Assembly: GCF_003044035.1 (NCBI RefSeq)
Contig: NZ_NVQC01000040.1
Span: forward strand, 1-32,000
Length of the DNA stretch: 32,000 nucleotides
DNA from: Candidatus Methylomirabilis limnetica
GTDB taxonomy: Bacteria; Methylomirabilota; Methylomirabilia; Methylomirabilales; Methylomirabilaceae
Direction: 5' to 3'
Part shown: positions 461 through 25,945 of the stretch, piece by piece
Layout: every line of letters starts with the position of its first letter
Numbering within the stretch: position 1 is the stretch's first letter
Position numbers and translations under genes: made by a program
The notes under the pieces: model-generated
What the model was told of the DNA's origin: nothing
The model's input: the letters and a program-made list of their open reading frames with translations, nothing else
Database searches by the model: none

Positions 461-897
461 TATTTGTCTCTCCTTCTTGTCCACGACCTTGCGTTCGTTT
501 ACCCCTGGACTCCAGATCGACTTCCTGGGGCCCTTCATCCGCTTGAGCCTGTTGCATTTACTCTTACGCTCACTCGGCCTGGAAGCTCATCTGACGCTCA
601 CCGAAATGCGCCAGCTTGGCAGGCAGTTCCAGTAGGATTTCCCCCTTTCTCACGCACGAACTCTACCAAGGGCGGCAAGTCGCGTCAAGGCCAGAGAGCA
701 GAAAAGACGTTATTGACGCCACCTTCGCCTTTTCGGGACAGATAACCACTATATGATCTTGTCAGCCAGGCATGCTCATGCGGGAGTGCCGGAATATATA
801 CGGGGCCGCGTCGGAAGGCCTGAAGGAAAGCAAAAGCCACGCGGTCAGGGTTTAGTCCGTCCGTTCGAGCTTGAAGGACAGCACCGTTTGTCGTATC

Positions 898-1051
898 GTA
901 ACTACAAGGTAGATAGGCTGAAGGCTGAAGGCTTTTAGGGGTAAGTCATGCGTGATCAAAGAAAACTTAGAAAAGGTCTTGAATGGCTCGATTCGTGCCT
1001 TGCGAGATAATTTAGAACCTTCAGCCTTCAGCCTAAACACCTTGTAGTTAC
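898..1051 (+). mobile_element. MITE-like hairpin-ended miniature element, copy 1 (154 bp)
   Basis: Terminal inverted repeats GTAACTACAAGGT / ACCTTGTAGTTAC. Subterminal 17-bp arms of AGGCTGA heptamers. Perfect 8-bp flanking direct repeat GTCGTATC (890-897 and 1052-1059). Collinear second copy at 19020-19175. No transposase-sized ORF. Confidence 0.7.
948..1010 (+). CDS. Candidate 20-aa micro-ORF inside MITE copy 1 (MRDQRKLRKGLEWLDSCLAR)
   Basis: AGGGG-N6-ATG. The ORF is intact in both element copies. Three of the 5 nucleotide differences between copies are synonymous. Statistically weak (n=5). Confidence 0.25.
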   Translation: MRDQRKLRKGLEWLDSCLAR

Positions 1052-1225
1052 GTCGTATCATGGGCCGCACCTTGGGGGTGAAAGGGAATGTGATCGCGCA
1101 CCCCCTGCATCTCCGCTCCTCAAGCGACCCACAAGGTTCTTACTTCAGTCCTATCCGTTTTAGGGTGAGCCGTCAGGAGCGTTGGCAGCGATCCCGCATG
1201 CAGAAGGGGCCTGAGAGACACGTGG

Positions 1226-2296
1226 ATGAGCGTGGTGGAGCAGTGGACGTTTGTGAGGGAAAAGTCAGGCGATTTACTGTCCCCAAGCGTCCAACATGCC
1301 CTGCGCGTGTTGTTTCGTAACTACATGGACTCGCGGCTGGCGGTCTATAGTAAGCTGCCGGATCTGGACGCGGCCAGAGCGGAACTCGCCCGGTCCGAGG
1401 AGCTGCGACATAAGATTTGGAGCCGGGCGGTGGCCGTCGCGCTCATTGGCGCGCTGGCTCTCGGAACGACCGTGGCCCATGCCGCTGACTTCTCGACTTC
1501 GCTTGGGGCGGACGCGCTGCCGACGCAGCCGGCATTGACCGCTGAGCGGGCCAGGGGCGTCCCCACGGGCGAAGAAGTGAACACGGGGCAGGATCCCACC
1601 CGGCCCGTCACCCGAGTGGACGTGCGGTTCAAGTACCATGAGTCTGACCATAGGGCAGTGGACGGCGATTCGGTGCAGGTTCTGACCCTGCGGGCCGACT
1701 GGATGGTGCCGCTTGGGGGCGGCTGGGTGCTGGGCCTGCGCGGCGATCTGCCTCTGTCGTGGGACGACACGCCGAGCCTCGACAACCCGCGGGGCGTGCG
1801 GCAGTTCGGACTGTCGGACACCCTACTCCAGGGCTTCTTGATCACGCCGACGGCCGGCAAGTGGACCGCCGCCCTCGGCACCCAGGTGATCTTCCCCACG
1901 GCCCCCAAGGCCCAGATGGGCACGGGCAAGTTCCAGCTCGTTCCTTCGGCGGCCGTCAAGTACGATTTGGGTGGCTGGATTCCGAGGGCCTGGACGGCGC
2001 TCATCGTACGCCACGCCGTGGACGTGGGGCAGGCACAGGCCAGCCGTCCCTCCATCAACCAGACCATCGTGCAGCCGTTCCTGAATTTTGATTTGCCGTG
2101 CGAGTGGTTCTTGACCTTCTCACCCGAAATGCGGTACGACTGGCAGAGCGCTGACTGGCACATCCCGTTCAACGTGGAGGTGGGCACGATGGTGACCCGG
2201 CGGATCGTCATGTCCGTCGAATACAATGTGGCCATCGAGAAGAATCTGCCCTTGTATAAGCAGGCAGTGGAGTTCAGGGTAGGATACTTCTTTTGA
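1226..2296 (+). CDS. Putative outer-membrane beta-barrel protein (MetA-pathway/'transporter'-like OMP); start uncertain
   Basis: C-terminus ...VEFRVGYFF is typical of OMPs. A signal-peptide-like segment AVAVALIGALALGTTVAHA/ADF lies about 70 codons into the longest ORF. The remainder has an alternating beta-strand pattern. Candidate starts: ATG 1226, ATG 1325, GTG 1430 (GGAG 7 nt upstream). Confidence 0.6.
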   Translation: MSVVEQWTFVREKSGDLLSPSVQHALRVLFRNYMDSRLAVYSKLPDLDAARAELARSEELRHKIWSRAVAVALIGALALGTTVAHAADFSTSLGADALPTQPALTAERARGVPTGEEVNTGQDPTRPVTRVDVRFKYHESDHRAVDGDSVQVLTLRADWMVPLGGGWVLGLRGDLPLSWDDTPSLDNPRGVRQFGLSDTLLQGFLITPTAGKWTAALGTQVIFPTAPKAQMGTGKFQLVPSAAVKYDLGGWIPRAWTALIVRHAVDVGQAQASRPSINQTIVQPFLNFDLPCEWFLTFSPEMRYDWQSADWHIPFNVEVGTMVTRRIVMSVEYNVAIEKNLPLYKQAVEFRVGYFF

Positions 2297-18972: not shown

Positions 18973-19019
18973 CGTCGATGATCCAGAGCCTCAGCCCGCA
19001 CCGTTGATCAACCCAGAGG

Positions 19020-19175
19020 GTAACTACTCAGGTAGATAGGCTGAAGGCTTTTAGGGGTAAGCCATGCGTGATCATACAAAACTCCGAAAAGGTCTTGAGT
19101 GGCTCGATTCGTGCCTTGCGAGATAATTTAGAACCTTCAGTCTTCAGCCTTCAGTCTAAACACCTGAGTAGTTAC
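19020..19175 (+). mobile_element. MITE-like hairpin-ended miniature element, copy 2 (156 bp), in the nirS-nirJ spacer
   Basis: Termini GTAACTACTCAGGT / ACCTGAGTAGTTAC. Flanks CCCAGAGG (19012-19019) and CCCGGAGG (19176-19183). Core nearly identical to copy 1. Heptamer arms are unequal (10 nt left, 24 nt right). Confidence 0.7.
19064..19126 (+). CDS. Candidate 20-aa micro-ORF inside MITE copy 2 (MRDHTKLRKGLEWLDSCLAR)
   Basis: Same frame, length and stop as 948-1010, with AGGGG upstream. Confidence 0.25.
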   Translation: MRDHTKLRKGLEWLDSCLAR

Positions 19176-19205
19176 CCCGGAGGAAACATCATAACACGTA
19201 ATAGA

Positions 19206-22469: not shown

Positions 22470-24686
22470 ATGACGGTGATGCTGATGCTACTGCTGGCAC
22501 CGCTGCACGCCACCGCCTCGCCTGAAACGCCACCAACATCTCTGTGGCAGGAGGCGCTTACGCGCATCGGGACCCACGATTACCATGGCGCGGCGCCCCT
22601 GCTTGACGATCTGCGGCAACGCGATGGCTTCGCCAAAGCCCACGAGGCCAACTTCCTCCTGGGCGTGGTGCTGTACCGACAGAAGCAGTGGCAGGAGGCC
22701 GCCGACGCATTGGAGGTGGCCGCAACGCAGGTGCCTGTACTTGGGGATTATGCCCTGTACTACGCCGCATCAGCCTATCAGACCCTTGGCCTGAACTCTC
22801 GGGCGCTGGCTGTACTGTCGCGCCTGCTTCACGAGCATCCGGGGAGCCTGCTCACCGAGCGAGCTCGACAAGAGCGCGCACGGCTTTATTCCGACGCTAA
22901 CCAACTCGCGCAGGCTGAGGAGGCGTACCGGGATTACCTGGCCCACGCCTCAGGCGAGGCGAGGCGACGGGAAGCGCAACTCGCGCTGGCAGAGATTGCC
23001 GTCAAGGCGGATAAGCGCCGGGAGGCCGAAGCACTGCTACGCGAGCTGTGGCTCAAGTGGCCGGCGAGCCGGGAGGCGGCTCGAGCCGGCGAACTCCTGG
23101 CCTCAATGGCAGAAGTACCACCCTTCACCCTTGATGAGCAGTTCGATCGGGCGCTCAGTCTGTACCGTAGCAGCCAGTACGCCCAGGCAATTACCGCGTT
23201 CACACCCTTCTTGCCTGTCCCCGACCCCGATCGGGGAAGCGATGGCTCGCCCCCTCTCGACAGAGCGCGGGACAGGTTTGCCTCTCGCGCAAGGCTCTGG
23301 AGCGGCGTCAGTTACTTTCACCGCCGGGACTACAGCCGAGCCATCAGCCTCCTGTCGCCTCTGGGTCAGGACCACTCCCTTCATTCGGCGGAAGCGCTGT
23401 ACTGGACCGGGCGAAGCCATGTCAGAGTTAACGACAGCGAAAAAGCCATCACAACGTGGACCCGCCTGGTCGACGCCTATCCGAATAGTCCCTTTAGCGC
23501 CGAGTCACTCTACCTGATGGCGCTCCAGTACAGTGACGATGGCAAACCGAAACGGGCTGTACGGGCTCTCACCAGGCTCCTCAGGGACCACCCGTCTAGC
23601 CAGTTCGCCGACGCCGCCCTCTGGACTCGGGCCTGGATCCATTATCGACAGTCGGCTCTTACGGAGGCACTTGCTGATCTGCAACGACTGCACGCGAGGG
23701 GTGCGTCAGCCTCGCGGTTTCAGGTGCAAGCTCTCTATTGGCAGGGCCGGGTCCTTGAAGGTCTGAAAAAGAGGGGGAAGGCTGTAGCGGCGTACCGAGG
23801 GCTACTCAGTACCCACAAGAACGAGGACTATTACGTCGAACAGACGCGTCTGCGCCTGAAGACGCTGGAGCCACAGTCTGCGCGTGCCCTCGCGCTCGCC
23901 ACGCCAAGCGAGCCTTCAGGGGTCAGTGGTCAGGGGTTAGCCGTTCCTGTACCCTGTACCCTATCCCCTCAACCCTGTTCTTCCGAGGTGGCCAAAGCCA
24001 GACTGCTCAAGGATCTGAACCTGCGGGAGGAGGCATCAGAGGAGTTCTGGGCCCTCGCAGGGCGGTCTGCGGAAGACCGCGGACTCTTATACGAGGCCTG
24101 TAGCGCGTTGCTCGACTTGGGTTATCTCGATAAGAGTGTGGCGATCGCGAAGCGCCTCCTTCGTCCGCTGTATGCCCACAGTCGGCCCGCGGGGCCGGTG
24201 CCGAGATATTGGGAGTTCCTCTACCCGCTCGGATATTGGGATCTGGTACGGGGGCAGAGCGCGCAGTATACCCTTGATCCATACCTGGTTGTTGCGCTGA
24301 TTCGGGAGGAGAGCGCGTTTAGCGAACGGGTAGTGTCGTCTTCCGGGGCTGTTGGGCTGATGCAACTGCTCCCCACAACCGCCAATTACATGGCCAATGC
24401 GAAAGGCAGCTCTGGGGATCCGACGAAGCTCGACACGCCGGCCAATAATATTGCGCTTGGCACTCGATACCTGGCGATGATGCTCGATGAGTTCAAGGGC
24501 AACTGGGCCAGGGCCTTAGCCGCATACAATGCTGGGCCAAACCAGGTGCGTCGCTGGTTGGGACGGTTGGGGGATCGCACTGATGACGAGTTCATTGAAG
24601 AGATCCCGTTCTCAGAGACGAGAGCGTATGTGAAGCGGGTCCTCGGAAGCTATTACCGCTATCGAGCGCAGTATAGTAAAGGATAG
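22470..24686 (+). CDS. slt: Soluble lytic murein transglycosylase (Slt70-like, TPR/superhelical N-domain + SLT domain)
   Basis: Signal-like MTVMLMLLLAPLHATASPE from ATG 22470. SLT motifs ESAFSERVVSSSGAVGLMQL and AYNAGP. The longest ORF begins at 22395 inside the 9-mer repeats. Confidence 0.85.
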   Translation: MTVMLMLLLAPLHATASPETPPTSLWQEALTRIGTHDYHGAAPLLDDLRQRDGFAKAHEANFLLGVVLYRQKQWQEAADALEVAATQVPVLGDYALYYAASAYQTLGLNSRALAVLSRLLHEHPGSLLTERARQERARLYSDANQLAQAEEAYRDYLAHASGEARRREAQLALAEIAVKADKRREAEALLRELWLKWPASREAARAGELLASMAEVPPFTLDEQFDRALSLYRSSQYAQAITAFTPFLPVPDPDRGSDGSPPLDRARDRFASRARLWSGVSYFHRRDYSRAISLLSPLGQDHSLHSAEALYWTGRSHVRVNDSEKAITTWTRLVDAYPNSPFSAESLYLMALQYSDDGKPKRAVRALTRLLRDHPSSQFADAALWTRAWIHYRQSALTEALADLQRLHARGASASRFQVQALYWQGRVLEGLKKRGKAVAAYRGLLSTHKNEDYYVEQTRLRLKTLEPQSARALALATPSEPSGVSGQGLAVPVPCTLSPQPCSSEVAKARLLKDLNLREEASEEFWALAGRSAEDRGLLYEACSALLDLGYLDKSVAIAKRLLRPLYAHSRPAGPVPRYWEFLYPLGYWDLVRGQSAQYTLDPYLVVALIREESAFSERVVSSSGAVGLMQLLPTTANYMANAKGSSGDPTKLDTPANNIALGTRYLAMMLDEFKGNWARALAAYNAGPNQVRRWLGRLGDRTDDEFIEEIPFSETRAYVKRVLGSYYRYRAQYSKG
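23921..23983 (+). repeat. Composite heptamer element inside slt (9 heptamers, 63 nt)
   Basis: GGTCAGT GGTCAGG GGTTAGC CGTTCCT GTACCCT GTACCCT ATCCCCT CAACCCT GTTCTTC. The last 35 nt match queA 10146-10180 at 30 of 35 positions. Confidence 0.7.
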
Positions 24687-24708
24687 GGTGGAGGGTGGAG
24701 GAAGGTGT
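24681..24708 (-). repeat. Partial ACCCT-type heptamer array at the slt/coaBC junction
   Basis: + strand GGATAGG GTGGAGG GTGGAGG AAGGTGT; the complement reads CCTCCAC CCTCCAC CCTATCC. Contains the slt stop TAG and the GTG at 24695. Confidence 0.45.
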
Positions 24709-24721
24709 GGACAACGGGCAA

Positions 24722-25945
24722 ATGACGCTACAGGGGAAACAGATCGTGCTGGGCGTGACCGGGAGTATCGCCGCCTATAAGGCCGTAGAGCTTGTGCGGG
24801 CGCTCACCACGGCGGGGGCCGGTGTTCGGGTCGTCATGACCGCCTCGGCCCAGCGCTTTGTGACCCCCCTGACGTTTGCCACCCTCTCGCGGCAGGCGGT
24901 AATGACCGACCGTGTGACCCTGGAGGACGAGACGACGATGCCGCACATCGCCACGGCGCATGAGGCCGACCTGCTCCTGGTCGCGCCTGCCACCGCCAAT
25001 ACCATCGCCAAGTTCGCTCAGGGGCTGGCCGACGATCTACTGAGCACCCTCTTCCTGGCGTGGACGCGGCCGGTTGTGCTTGCGCCCGCCATGGACGCGG
25101 CCATGTACCGCCACCCCGCCGTTCAAGAGAATCTGGCGCGATTGCAGGGCTGGGGGGTGCGACTTGTGGGTCCGGCGACTGGTGAGCTGGCCTCGGGCGT
25201 GTGGGGTCCCGGCCGTCTGTCCGAGATCGGCGAGATCGTGCAGGCCGTGACCGAGACGCTCTGTCCCGTACGCGACCTGTGCGGCGAGGTGATCCTGATC
25301 ACCGCCGGCCCGACGCGTGAGCCGATCGATCCGGTACGCTACCTCAGTACCCGCGCCTCCGGCAAGATGGGGTACGCCCTGGCAGAGGAAGCGGTGGCGC
25401 GAGGCGCGCGTACCATCCTGGTCAGTGGCCCGACCCACGTGAGCCCGCCTACGGGGGTCGAACTCATCCAGATCGAGACCGCCCTGCAGATGCGCACGGC
25501 TGTGCTGGACCGATTGGCCGAGGCTACGGTGGTGATCAAAGCAGCCGCGGTCAGCGATTATCGTGTCGCGCAGCCGGCTGACGCCAAGCTCTCGAAAGGC
25601 GAGGCGCCCCTGACGCTGGAACTGGTGCCTACTCCGGACATCCTTAAAGAGATTGGTGCTCAGAAGGGCGCACGGATTGTCGTCGGCTTCGCGGCCGAGA
25701 CCGGCGAGGTTGTGCGGCGGGCTCACCATAAGCTGATGGCCAAGCAGCTCGACCTGATCGTGGCGAACGACGTGAGCCAGGCCGGGGCCGGGTTCGCGTG
25801 CGACACCAATCTGGTGATCCTACTCGATCCGGCAGGGGGGGCTGAAGAGCTCCCACTGCTTCCCAAACGGCAGGTGGCGCGTCACATCCTCGACCGCGTG
25901 GTGGGCCTCCGGCAGCAGAAAAACAGGGTAGAGGGTGGAGGGTAG
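24722..25945 (+). CDS. coaBC: Bifunctional phosphopantothenoylcysteine decarboxylase / phosphopantothenate-cysteine ligase CoaBC
   Basis: Flavoprotein motif [11 protein letters not shown] near the N-terminus from ATG 24722. C-terminal CoaB domain ([25 protein letters not shown]). The GTG 24695 extension lies in the repeat. Confidence 0.93.

Follow-up and report, generated by a model that had tools for sequence, protein, structure and literature searches.

Two miniature transposable elements in Candidatus Methylomirabilis limnetica and their probable origin from an intervening-sequence protein cassette

Two repeats in the window, that is, the whole 32,000-nucleotide stretch of Candidatus Methylomirabilis limnetica contig NZ_NVQC01000040.1 that was analyzed, are genuine miniature transposable elements with recent mobility; very probably, they are mobile, internally deleted derivatives of a cassette that encodes a 23S rRNA intervening-sequence protein (IVP). 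The IVP cassette lineage to which they belong shows the whole signature of transposition, namely terminal inverted repeats (TIRs), constant 8-bp target-site duplications (TSDs), an exact empty site, nested insertions and a swarm of miniature copies, and this is direct genomic evidence for the transposition of the long-puzzling IVP cassettes. The overall explanation that we consider likely is that the repeats are MITE-like, non-autonomous DNA element copies that arose from an IVP cassette and are moved in trans.

Both the intervening sequences (IVSs) of 23S rRNA in bacteria and the protein that they frequently encode, S23p/IVP, have been known since 1990-93, and to our knowledge the IVP family has no known function. 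The origin of IVSs has been called unclear, and they have been proposed to be 'remnants of a transposition event' or a mobile element with an ORF needed for mobility (PMC4990558). Our literature search returned no link of Methylomirabilis to MITEs, no link of STRR/heptamer repeats to S23p/IVP, and none of the sequence strings of the element.

Organization of the two window copies

The two copies of the element are located at 898-1051 (copy 1, 154 bp) and 19020-19175 (copy 2, 156 bp), and both these positions and the shared layout, which had been proposed in an earlier note made from the sequence alone, were confirmed by the sequence and by alignment. Mean column identity between the copies was 84% in a 207-column alignment, and their 113-nt core was 94% identical. 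The TIRs are perfect in both copies, at 13 bp in copy 1 and 14 bp in copy 2. All of the features described below are on the + strand, except for the TSDs, to which no strand was assigned.

Copy 1 is bracketed by two identical TSDs, GTCGTATC, at 890-897 and 1052-1059. Between them lie, in order, the left TIR GTAACTACAAGGT, a 13-nt variant (898-910), the 4-nt spacer AGAT (911-914), a left heptamer arm of 2.7 AGGCTGA units (915-933), TTTTAGGGGTAAG, the core, TTTAGAACC, a right heptamer arm of 2.4 CCTTCAG units (1018-1034), the 4-nt spacer AAAC (1035-1038) and the right TIR ACCTTGTAGTTAC (1039-1051). The arms were delimited by Tandem Repeats Finder and the TIRs and the right spacer by the sequence itself; AGAT lies opposite AAAC and makes an internal loop of the hairpin in the predicted fold. 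Alignment with full-length cassettes identified, within copy 1, a ribosome-binding region TTTTAGGGGTAAGTC with its ATG at 948-950 (933-950), which comes from the parent IVP gene, followed by a 5' remnant of the IVP ORF consisting of the ATG and about seven codons (MRDQRKL.., 948-969). This remnant runs up to an internal-deletion junction, after which copy 1 lacks about 290 nt that the parent has, and is joined out of frame to a 3' remnant (..EKVLNGSIRALRDNLE, 970-1017), the parent C-terminus being ETEKVLNGLIRALRDNL.

Copy 2 is organized in the same way, and its termini are 14 nt long. The left TIR GTAACTACTCAGGT (19020-19033), which by family comparison is the 14-nt family consensus, is followed by the AGAT spacer and a short left heptamer arm (AGGCTGAAGGCT, 19034-19049), by a core in which alignment located the ribosome-binding site, ATG (19064-19066), IVP 5' remnant, deletion junction and 3' remnant (19049-19133), by a right heptamer arm of 3.3 CTTCAGT/CTTCAGC units (19135-19157, Tandem Repeats Finder), and by the AAAC spacer with the right TIR ACCTGAGTAGTTAC (19158-19175). 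The flanking 8-mers, CCCAGAGG at 19012-19019 and CCCGGAGG at 19176-19183, are identical at seven of eight positions. Variation in the number of heptamers per arm, to which the earlier note had drawn attention, is evident in copy 2, with about 1.4 units on the left and about 3.3 on the right. The note's description of a small mobile element of non-coding size also held, since the copies of 154 and 156 bp contain only a 20-codon chimeric ORF.

Copy 1 lies between divergent protein genes and copy 2 between nirS and a nirJ-like gene, antisense to both neighbors; the element adjoins key denitrification genes. There was no rRNA match in the window, and neither window copy occupies any of the 23S rRNA helices 9, 25 and 45. 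A promoter or terminator role was considered and rejected: one promoter-like site (9 of 12 positions) spans the right end and TSD of copy 1, and there is none at copy 2.

Target-site duplications and insertion polymorphism

Insertion of the element duplicates 8 bp of target. For copy 1, an exact empty site was found in L096, a strain about 98% identical to the window in the flanks, which is shorter by exactly 154+8 bp and carries a single GTCGTATC; copy 1 is accordingly an insertion polymorphism, present in the window and absent from this closely related strain. For copy 2, L076 has an element-free orthologous nirS-nirJ spacer of 133 nt versus 294 nt in the window, which is consistent with an empty site.

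Flanking 8-mers were also compared for 53 non-redundant paired copies from Methylomirabilis-like metagenome contigs. They matched at 8/8 positions in 13 copies, at 7/8 in 10 and at 6/8 in five, so that 23 of the 53 family members have duplications of 7/8 or better, while 25 matched at 5/8 or fewer, a group in which there are copies that are decayed, nested or rearranged as well as some cases of misplaced boundaries. The length of the duplication is constant and its sequence varies among copies. The earlier note had read the 8-mers of the window as target-site duplications and had suggested that flanking 8-mers be tabulated and empty sites sought; with duplications recurring elsewhere and empty sites in L096 and L076, that reading stands.

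The element family

A search for further copies, which the note had also recommended, recovered 66 family loci in public collections, comprising three copies from one MAG of Ca. Methylomirabilis and 63 loci in metagenomes. The ends are conserved among family members and the cores differ wholesale. Among 52 members, the TIRs were perfect in 11 and had one mismatch in 17; the spacer was AGAT at 69 left-type ends and GTTT/GTTC at 77 right-type ends. There are many nested insertions and there are minimal copies of 62-63 bp that consist of arms only.

One locus from the genome scan, L004 (Arsenophonus), was rejected as a chance 20-mer match. Two others labeled Patescibacteria, L005 and L006, are genuine copies in DNA of 58% GC; the flanks of L005 are shared with the metagenome contig L028 (Ga0209515), which makes the Patescibacteria label of this MAG doubtful.

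The parent cassette and its IVP gene

Full-length cassettes with the same ends are about 440-470 bp long and contain a sole ORF of 119 aa. Their order is a 14-bp TIR GTAACTACTCAGGT, a 4-nt spacer, a G-rich heptamer array, a ribosome-binding site, the ORF, a C-rich heptamer array, a 4-nt spacer and the second TIR. The ORF of the full-length copy L012 matched PF05635 (23S_rRNA_IVP, E=6.3e-33) and TIGR02436 (E=2.5e-33), as well as two related NCBIfam subfamilies and, weakly, Avd (NF033474, E=7e-5), and its nearest solved structure was 2gsc (E=4.5e-25). The cassette ORF codes for a four-helix-bundle protein of the '23S rRNA intervening-sequence protein' family, to which Xanthomonas XCC0516 belongs and the DGR protein Avd is distantly related; this IVP family comprises 17,543 clusters at 50% identity. 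Two features of IVS cassettes are present, a PF05635/TIGR02436 ORF in the parent and complementary ends that form a long stem. The pairing of the arms in the full-length copies L079, L080 and L083 gave Smith-Waterman scores of 28-55, versus shuffle maxima of 19-25.

In the alignment, the window copies correspond to the full-length element minus about 290 nt, with the ribosome-binding site, the ATG, seven further codons and about 15 last codons of the IVP retained. Because about eight first codons are fused out of frame to about 15 last codons, the window copies encode nothing functional. The earlier note had recognized a core of about 63 nt, which is present, but had missed its origin as fused 5' and 3' remnants of a PF05635 gene.

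The IVP ORF shows purifying selection, with dN/dS of 0.10-0.33 and dS up to 0.88. IVP proteins with 86-96% identity are found in MAGs whose assignments span several phyla, and full-length cassettes were found in contigs of differing G+C. Perfect 8-bp TSDs flank the full-length copies L079 (AGCTTGTG, in a MAG labeled Nitrospira), L080 (GTTACTTG) and L083 (AAATTGAA, in a MAG labeled Deltaproteobacteria, 47% GC). Inverted heptamer arrays likewise enclose distant IVP genes, the heptamer being specific to each lineage, and heptamer-array arms are present in L089, a classical IVS within an Azospirillum 23S rRNA gene.

Hairpin fold and terminal stems

The sequence GTAACTAC occurs five times in the window versus 0.16 expected, and four of the five occurrences are ends of the element. 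The remaining one, at 1317-1324, has no heptamer arm and is probably due to chance.

Each window copy was predicted to fold into one long hairpin, at -69.2 kcal/mol for copy 1 (z = -8.0) and -59.8 kcal/mol for copy 2 (z = -5.9), and none of 200 shuffles was as stable; the folding check proposed in the earlier note thus gave a strong single hairpin for both copies. The terminal stems of the two copies differ in both arms jointly, as the note had stated, but the compensatory evolution that it read from this difference is not a family-wide rule and was rejected. Among 52 non-redundant members, the 13-nt end variant was paired with itself just once, in window copy 1, and with the 14-nt variant seven times, and the stem change is therefore not a conserved compensatory pattern. 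Heptamer variants were equally frequent on left and right arms in the 52 copies, and the number of units was unequal between arms in 29 of them. There is no sign of RNA-level selection on the stem.

The strength of the fold, together with the ribosome-binding site and ATG and the fact that three of the five differences between the short ORFs of the window copies are synonymous, might suggest that the repeats are conserved structured regulatory RNAs or code for a real 20-aa peptide, MRDQRKLRKGLEWLDSCLAR. This reading is effectively refuted, and we give it hardly any credence, by the exact presence/absence polymorphism with TSD, by cores that change wholesale between constant ends, and by stem variants that are mixed rather than compensatory. 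As a peptide gene, the short ORF joins two stretches of the IVP gene that are out of frame with each other, and it has an in-frame stop (TGA) in L002 and indels in other copies; as for a known RNA family, there was no Rfam match at the gathering threshold in the window.

Search for a mobilizing enzyme and proposed mechanism

The earlier note had ascribed the insertions to a transposase and had proposed a search for an autonomous element with the same termini. The roughly 500 kb of DNA that was retrieved contained no transposase bounded by these ends; there, the terminal 14-mer always adjoined a heptamer arm and never a long ORF, and the only element sharing the ends was the IVP-bearing parent, which does not encode a transposase either. 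Within the retrieved loci there was accordingly no sign of an autonomous partner with the same ends.

Under the explanation that we favor, the element is resident in Candidatus Methylomirabilis (NC10) and neighboring lineages, and an internal deletion of about 290 nt in the parent, with both ends kept, would have given rise to the MITE-like, non-autonomous window copies. A DDE-type transposase provided in trans would insert them, making a cut with an 8-bp stagger and carrying out the strand transfer, a step that the fixed duplication length suggests and to which we assign about an even chance. The ends appear to suffice for the transposition machinery, since 62-bp copies of the arms alone exist. 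By analogy with the classical IVS of 23S rRNA, transcribed arms would base-pair to give an extended stem that RNase III could cleave; such cutting may make insertions in operons and rRNA genes tolerable and may release the IVP mRNA from full-length copies, the miniature copies yielding the hairpin alone. RNase III excision of IVS stems has been documented in Coxiella, Leptospira and Salmonella (PMC4990558).

No gene besides that of the IVP was found in any full-length element, and purifying selection on the IVP together with the same ends across phyla is more than a simple passenger gene would be expected to show. These observations fit a different possibility, that the cassette is (semi-)autonomous and the 119-aa IVP is an element-encoded transposition factor, the miniatures being mobilized by the IVP of full-length copies. 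It might, for instance, act as a pentameric ring that attaches to the heptamer arrays or the hairpin ends and brings in a nuclease or polymerase of the host. Proteins that are so similar across phyla would be expected if the unit carries its own needs, the selected gene is co-conserved with the ends up to dS of about 0.9, and lineage-own heptamers around distant IVP genes suggest a pairing of protein and arms; a requirement of the ORF for mobility had been put forward by Ralph and McClelland in 1993, as cited in PMC4990558. We nevertheless consider this reading rather unlikely, since no nuclease or strand-transfer chemistry is known in a four-helix bundle of this size, the IVP had no match to nuclease or transposase families and no PADLOC match to defence-system membership, and the fixed 8-bp TSD is a hallmark of DDE enzymes. 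The purifying selection could arise equally from a host benefit or from an addiction-type function.

A route through RNA, in which RNase III-like excision would be followed by reverse transcription by a host or DGR-type enzyme with the Avd-like IVP as cofactor and by integration with target duplication, appears very improbable. It draws on the distant homology of IVP to the DGR accessory protein Avd, on the excision of IVS elements as RNA (PMC4990558), and on the orientation of full-length copies, which are mostly co-oriented with flanking operon genes (L012, L079, L080 and L083, and six of the nine plasmid loci with annotated neighboring genes). However, TIRs that are intact right up to the TSD would not be expected after RNase III stem trimming, the constant TSD length is unlike target-primed retro-insertion, no reverse transcriptase was found near any copy, and copy 2 is antisense to both of its neighbors. 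In searches of other replicons, tblastn of the IVP gave no match in phages and blastn of the element gave no match in plasmids, and a phage or plasmid vector was rejected.

IS66 family insertion sequences have ends that begin with GTAA and generate 8-bp direct repeats. The element likewise has termini that begin with GTAA and a duplication of 8 bp, which recall this family and are taken here as a lead only, the match being just 4 nt long; unlike IS66 elements, it contains no TnpA or TnpB gene and no gene for the DDE transposase TnpC, and heptamer arrays are not known to adjoin the ends of IS66 elements.

Comparison with known systems

Transcripts of the Neisseria Correia elements are cut by RNase III. 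With these and other bacterial MITEs (enterobacterial ERIC/IRU, cyanobacterial Nezha), which are 60-200 bp long, the window copies share small size, TIRs, a fixed-length TSD, the lack of a functional ORF, dispersed copies in high number at intergenic sites, insertion polymorphism between strains and a hairpin transcript. Classical MITEs, however, derive from a transposase-encoding IS with the same ends, whereas here the parent codes for IVP alone and no IS partner was found, and the arms hold variable heptamer arrays.

Mobile insertion cassettes (MICs), such as MIC231 of Bacillus cereus, consist of IS ends around a passenger gene and have no transposase. The full-length element of about 450 bp is similarly composed of one non-transposase gene between two TIRs, with a TSD, but for MICs the cognate IS has been identified (IS231) and the cargo varies, while the cargo here is always one gene family under purifying selection and no cognate IS was found.

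The 23S rRNA IVSs with an S23p/IVP ORF (Leptospira, Coxiella, Brucella; PMC4990558) resemble the cassette in their PF05635 gene, their length of about 430-760 nt and their stem-forming ends, and in the Azospirillum IVS even in heptamer-array arms. In contrast to them, the window copies and their relatives lie in intergenic or operon spacers rather than in rRNA helices 9, 25 or 45, and they have outer TIRs, clear 8-bp TSDs and miniature derivatives, which are not established for rRNA IVSs (PMC4990558).

REPINs/REP (RAYT) and IS200/IS605-derived PATEs are also short hairpin repeats mobilized in trans by an enzyme encoded elsewhere, but they lack a TSD, insert 3' of a specific motif and have subterminal hairpins rather than TIRs, a pattern from which the present element departs in its constant 8-bp duplication. 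The tandem heptamers known as STRR in cyanobacteria and the GGGAATC arrays of Xanthomonas, which are frequently arranged as convergent pairs (PMC4692102), have the same 7-nt period, one G-rich strand, and intergenic positions, often as inverted pairs able to form stem-loops; in the literature consulted, they are described as simple sequence repeats or G-quadruplex motifs and are not linked to IVP genes or transposition.

Implications

The availability of a defined element, about 450 bp long, makes the old hypothesis of IVS mobility directly testable. The cassette also poses a puzzle for transposon biology, as its sole gene encodes a 119-aa helical protein, which implies either a trans-acting transposase across phyla or a new mechanism. 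The inverted heptamer arrays that flank distant IVP genes, among them one in a true rRNA IVS, suggest where the heptamer repeats of both cyanobacteria and Xanthomonas might have come from. More broadly, and as a tentative proposal that we think has the lesser chance of being correct, IVP cassettes might form a phylum-spanning class of small mobile elements with an Avd-like gene and inverted heptamer-array arms, in which no classical transposase is encoded and IVP serves as a mobility or maintenance factor. If so, 23S rRNA IVSs, the window miniatures and many inverted heptamer arrays of cyanobacteria, Xanthomonas and NC10 would be footprints of this class. On the practical side, assemblies of Methylomirabilis break within the element.

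Layout of the two copies

The sequence bears out the layout that the earlier note had described for the two miniature hairpin-ended elements. Copy 1 (positions 898-1051, 154 bp) reads GTAACTACAAGGT-AGAT-(AGGCTGA)2.7-TTTTAGGGGTAAG-core-TTTAGAACC-(CCTTCAG)2.4-AAAC-ACCTTGTAGTTAC, with GTCGTATC on either flank. Copy 2 (19020-19175, 156 bp) follows the same plan with 14-nt termini, a longer right arm and a shorter left arm than copy 1, and is flanked by CCCAGAGG and CCCGGAGG. The cores, of 113 nt, are 94% identical, and the window has five occurrences of GTAACTAC, where 0.16 would be expected. Each copy was predicted to fold into one long hairpin (z = -8.0 for copy 1 and -5.9 for copy 2), and neither was matched in an Rfam search. 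The G+C content of the elements is 43-45%, versus 58% for the window.

A sigma-70-like site at 1034-1061 (+), a 9/12 match to the consensus only, is aimed into the downstream ORF, with its -35 element in the right end of copy 1 and its -10 element across the target-site duplication (TSD). Relatives of the ORF at 1226-2296 (+) with ≤86% identity are 259-346 aa long (446 aa in one case) and span just ~70% of it. Translation thus probably starts at a point more distant from copy 1, beyond the first ~55-95 called codons.

Mobility

The element is mobile. In assembly GCA_973355545.1 (locus L096), the flanking protein is 99% identical to that of the window and identity is ~98% over the entire spacer around copy 1, and the locus is shorter by exactly 162 bp, i.e. 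the 154-bp element and one GTCGTATC, with a single GTCGTATC remaining at the site. At the site of copy 2, the nirS-nirJ spacer is 133 nt in a more distant relative (L076) versus 294 nt in the window, the length expected without copy 2 and one 8-mer; of the other relatives, one has unrelated sequence at this site and another a different miniature element. Among 53 non-redundant paired copies the duplication matched at 8/8 positions in 13, 7/8 in 10 and 6/8 in 5, while those without a clear TSD include nested, rearranged or decayed copies. The proposal that the flanking 8-mers are target duplications was thus confirmed by an empty site that is exact in L096 and consistent in L076, and by 23 of 53 copies matching at 7/8 or better.

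Target sites have a higher A+T content than the genome and show a weak bias towards G-N5-T-C. Insertions of copy into copy are frequent, and same-strain short-read assemblies break within the element. The element moves by insertion of DNA with duplication of 8 bp; mobility via RNA, which fits poorly with the intact terminal inverted repeats (TIRs) and the constant TSD length, is highly improbable.

Derivation from an intervening-sequence protein cassette

At locus L012, an element of 439 bp whose ends are those of the window copies retains an intact 119-aa ORF for a 23S rRNA intervening-sequence protein (IVP). Its product matched Pfam PF05635 '23S rRNA-intervening sequence protein' (E=6.3e-33) and TIGR02436 'four helix bundle protein' (E=2.5e-33), and weakly matched DGR Avd; the nearest solved structure is Xanthomonas XCC0516 (PDB 2gsc). 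Alignment with three full-length cassettes showed that the window copies are such a cassette minus ~290 internal nt. TTTTAGGGGTAAG is the ribosome-binding region, followed by ATG and seven further codons of the IVP ORF, and the remainder of the core is the final ~15 IVP codons (..EKVLNG[L/S]IRALRDNL). These remnants are joined out of frame, and the 20-codon ORF of the window copies, which is interrupted in other copies, is therefore a relic; a purely regulatory or peptide-coding element is effectively excluded. The window copies are classed as MITEs (miniature inverted-repeat transposable elements) with an IVP cassette, not an IS, as parent.

IVP is the sole gene in every full-length copy, and across ~500 kb of retrieved sequence only the heptamer arm was ever attached to the terminal 14-mer; the parent cassette is not a transposase-bearing IS. 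Full-length copies fit snugly between operon genes of like orientation, and perfect 8-bp duplications were found at three of them, L079 (AGCTTGTG), L080 (GTTACTTG) and L083 (AAATTGAA). The surroundings of L083, at 47% G+C, are clearly unlike NC10, and at locus L103 (63% G+C) the left end has decayed. Pairwise dN/dS of the IVP ORF is 0.10-0.33, and conservation of the ends persists at dS values as high as 0.88, which indicates that the protein is kept by selection and moves along with its arms. A protein search with IVP gave at least 7,980 matches, and the best 120, which were inspected for identity and host label, were all 86-96% identical, with MAG labels of NC10, Nitrospira/Nitrospirae, Syntrophobacterales and Deltaproteobacteria.

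Variation among family members

Searching with a core 20-mer identified three true copies in one Candidatus Methylomirabilis sp. MAG (L001-L003) and two in Patescibacteria-labelled contigs (L005 and L006; DATMXF01, 'Patescibacteria group bacterium' MAG); one further match was due to chance. L005 and L006 have ~58% G+C, typical of NC10, and the flanks of L005 were also found in metagenome contig L028 (Ga0209515); the label of this MAG is probably a binning error. The genes of the window itself indicate NC10: they include nirS and a nirJ-like radical-SAM gene, and the closest homologues are named 'candidate division NC10'. A second 20-mer identified 63 metagenome loci with the element.

Across family loci the ends are conserved and the interior varies wholesale. 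Other members are different deletion derivatives of 126-366 bp, and in the smallest, of 62-63 bp, nothing but the two arms is left; the ends suffice in cis. Their asymmetry is fixed, with the spacer AGAT at 69 left-type ends and GTTT/GTTC (reading outward) at 77 right-type ends.

Both arms of the terminal stem do differ together between the window copies, as the earlier note had observed, but the compensatory pattern it had proposed fails among 52 family members, in which the 13-nt terminal variant stood at both ends in a single case, window copy 1, and in mixed pairs in seven. Left and right arms have heptamer variants at equal frequency, and the number of heptamer units is unequal between arms in 29 of the 52 copies. 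The variation in stems and arms resembles what independent decay and slippage would leave, rather than selection for pairing.

At L021:2750-2998, truncated copies lie in head-to-tail tandem with a duplicated CTGAGTAGTTAC end at the junction, which may be the product of aberrant transposition or recombination. A second, unrelated miniature repeat (…CCCCGCGGCTTGCCGCGGGG… with …TTCATT ends; L077:1-60, L051 and L054) occupies the nirS-nirJ spacer position of copy 2 in one relative and is elsewhere nested within IVP-derived elements (L051, L054), suggesting insertion hot spots in common.

Heptamer arrays at distant IVP genes

Clustered at 50% identity, the IVP family (E≤1e-3) divides into 17,543 groups. 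A tblastn search of plasmids with IVP found homologues at 33-51% identity in 27 records, most of them from cyanobacteria, and flanks were examined in 10 of them. Inverted heptamer arrays flank eight of these ten IVP genes, with a unit specific to each lineage (AAGGGAA, AGGGTGT, TAGGGAG, CAGGGAA, CAGGTGA, CAGAGGG, TTAGCTG and GGACAGA). The arm alignment score was 33-63 versus a shuffle maximum of 20-29 at seven of the eight loci; at the eighth (L087) the arms were detected by a repeat finder, because the left arm lies partly beyond the scored window. As background, 50 kb of one Nostoc plasmid contains just seven perfect period-7 arrays, three of which abut the IVP gene. An unsystematic look at these relatives revealed no clear outer TIR or TSD.

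At one of the eight loci, on Azospirillum lipoferum 4B plasmid AZO_p2 (L089, 14010-15145), an unannotated IVP ORF has (GGACGGA/GGACAGA) heptamer arms, and its flanks, recognised by eye, are presumably a 23S rRNA gene in the region around helix 45, so that this would be a classical helix-45-type intervening sequence (IVS). At two more of the eight, in Pseudanabaena galeata pPg_01 (L086) and Anabaena sp. 90 pANA02 (L095), the IVP gene with long heptamer arrays is located between cas6 and cas4, within the CRISPR-Cas locus of each of these two different cyanobacterial plasmids. In Nostoc edaphicum pNe_5 (L100), a second pair of the same GGGAGTG/TCCCTAC heptamers, further out (43222-43241 and 48948-48966), encloses ribonucleotide-reductase genes, with an IVP cassette already between nrdB and nrdA. 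P0298, a predicted protein of 2,474 aa from the representative library, has 19 separate IVP-matching stretches; either it is a genuine protein of IVP repeats, or gene calling ran an ORF across a cassette array.

Possible mechanism

There is about an even chance that a DDE-type transposase provided in trans makes the staggered cut. Members of the IS66 family have GTAA ends and 8-bp repeats; the element is alike in both, although the resemblance of the ends amounts to just four bases. By analogy, the transcribed arms could be an RNase III substrate, in which case operon and rRNA insertions would be benign. The parent codes for IVP alone, and IVP could itself be the mobility factor, which we consider unlikely; the ORF was proposed in this role for rRNA IVSs by Ralph and McClelland in 1993 (as cited in PMC4990558), and the origin of IVSs is still described as unclear in a paper on the Coxiella IVS (PMC4990558).

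In the literature covered, which included few subscription-journal papers, there was no report of MITEs in Methylomirabilis, the sequences of the element appeared in no paper and heptamer repeats were nowhere linked with IVP/S23p. We tentatively raise the possibility that IVP cassettes, with their heptamer-array arms, constitute a widespread class of their own among mobile elements, one that may be transposase-independent.

Other heptamer modules in the window

Further heptamer-repeat modules lie within long ORFs, apparently in frame, at 10093-10180, 23910-23985 and 30684-30728, for example (CAGCGAT)2(CAGCAGT)2...(TACCCTA)2 TCCCCTA GACCCTG. In a QueA-like protein, one module accounts for ~30 additional aa, which lie between PPYIKR and DRERYQTVYA, and the two-part layout of the module was found again in a second ORF. 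Direct AGGGTGG/AGGGTAG heptamer arrays (24685-24701 and 25925-25954) are located at both ends of the ORF at 24695-25945.
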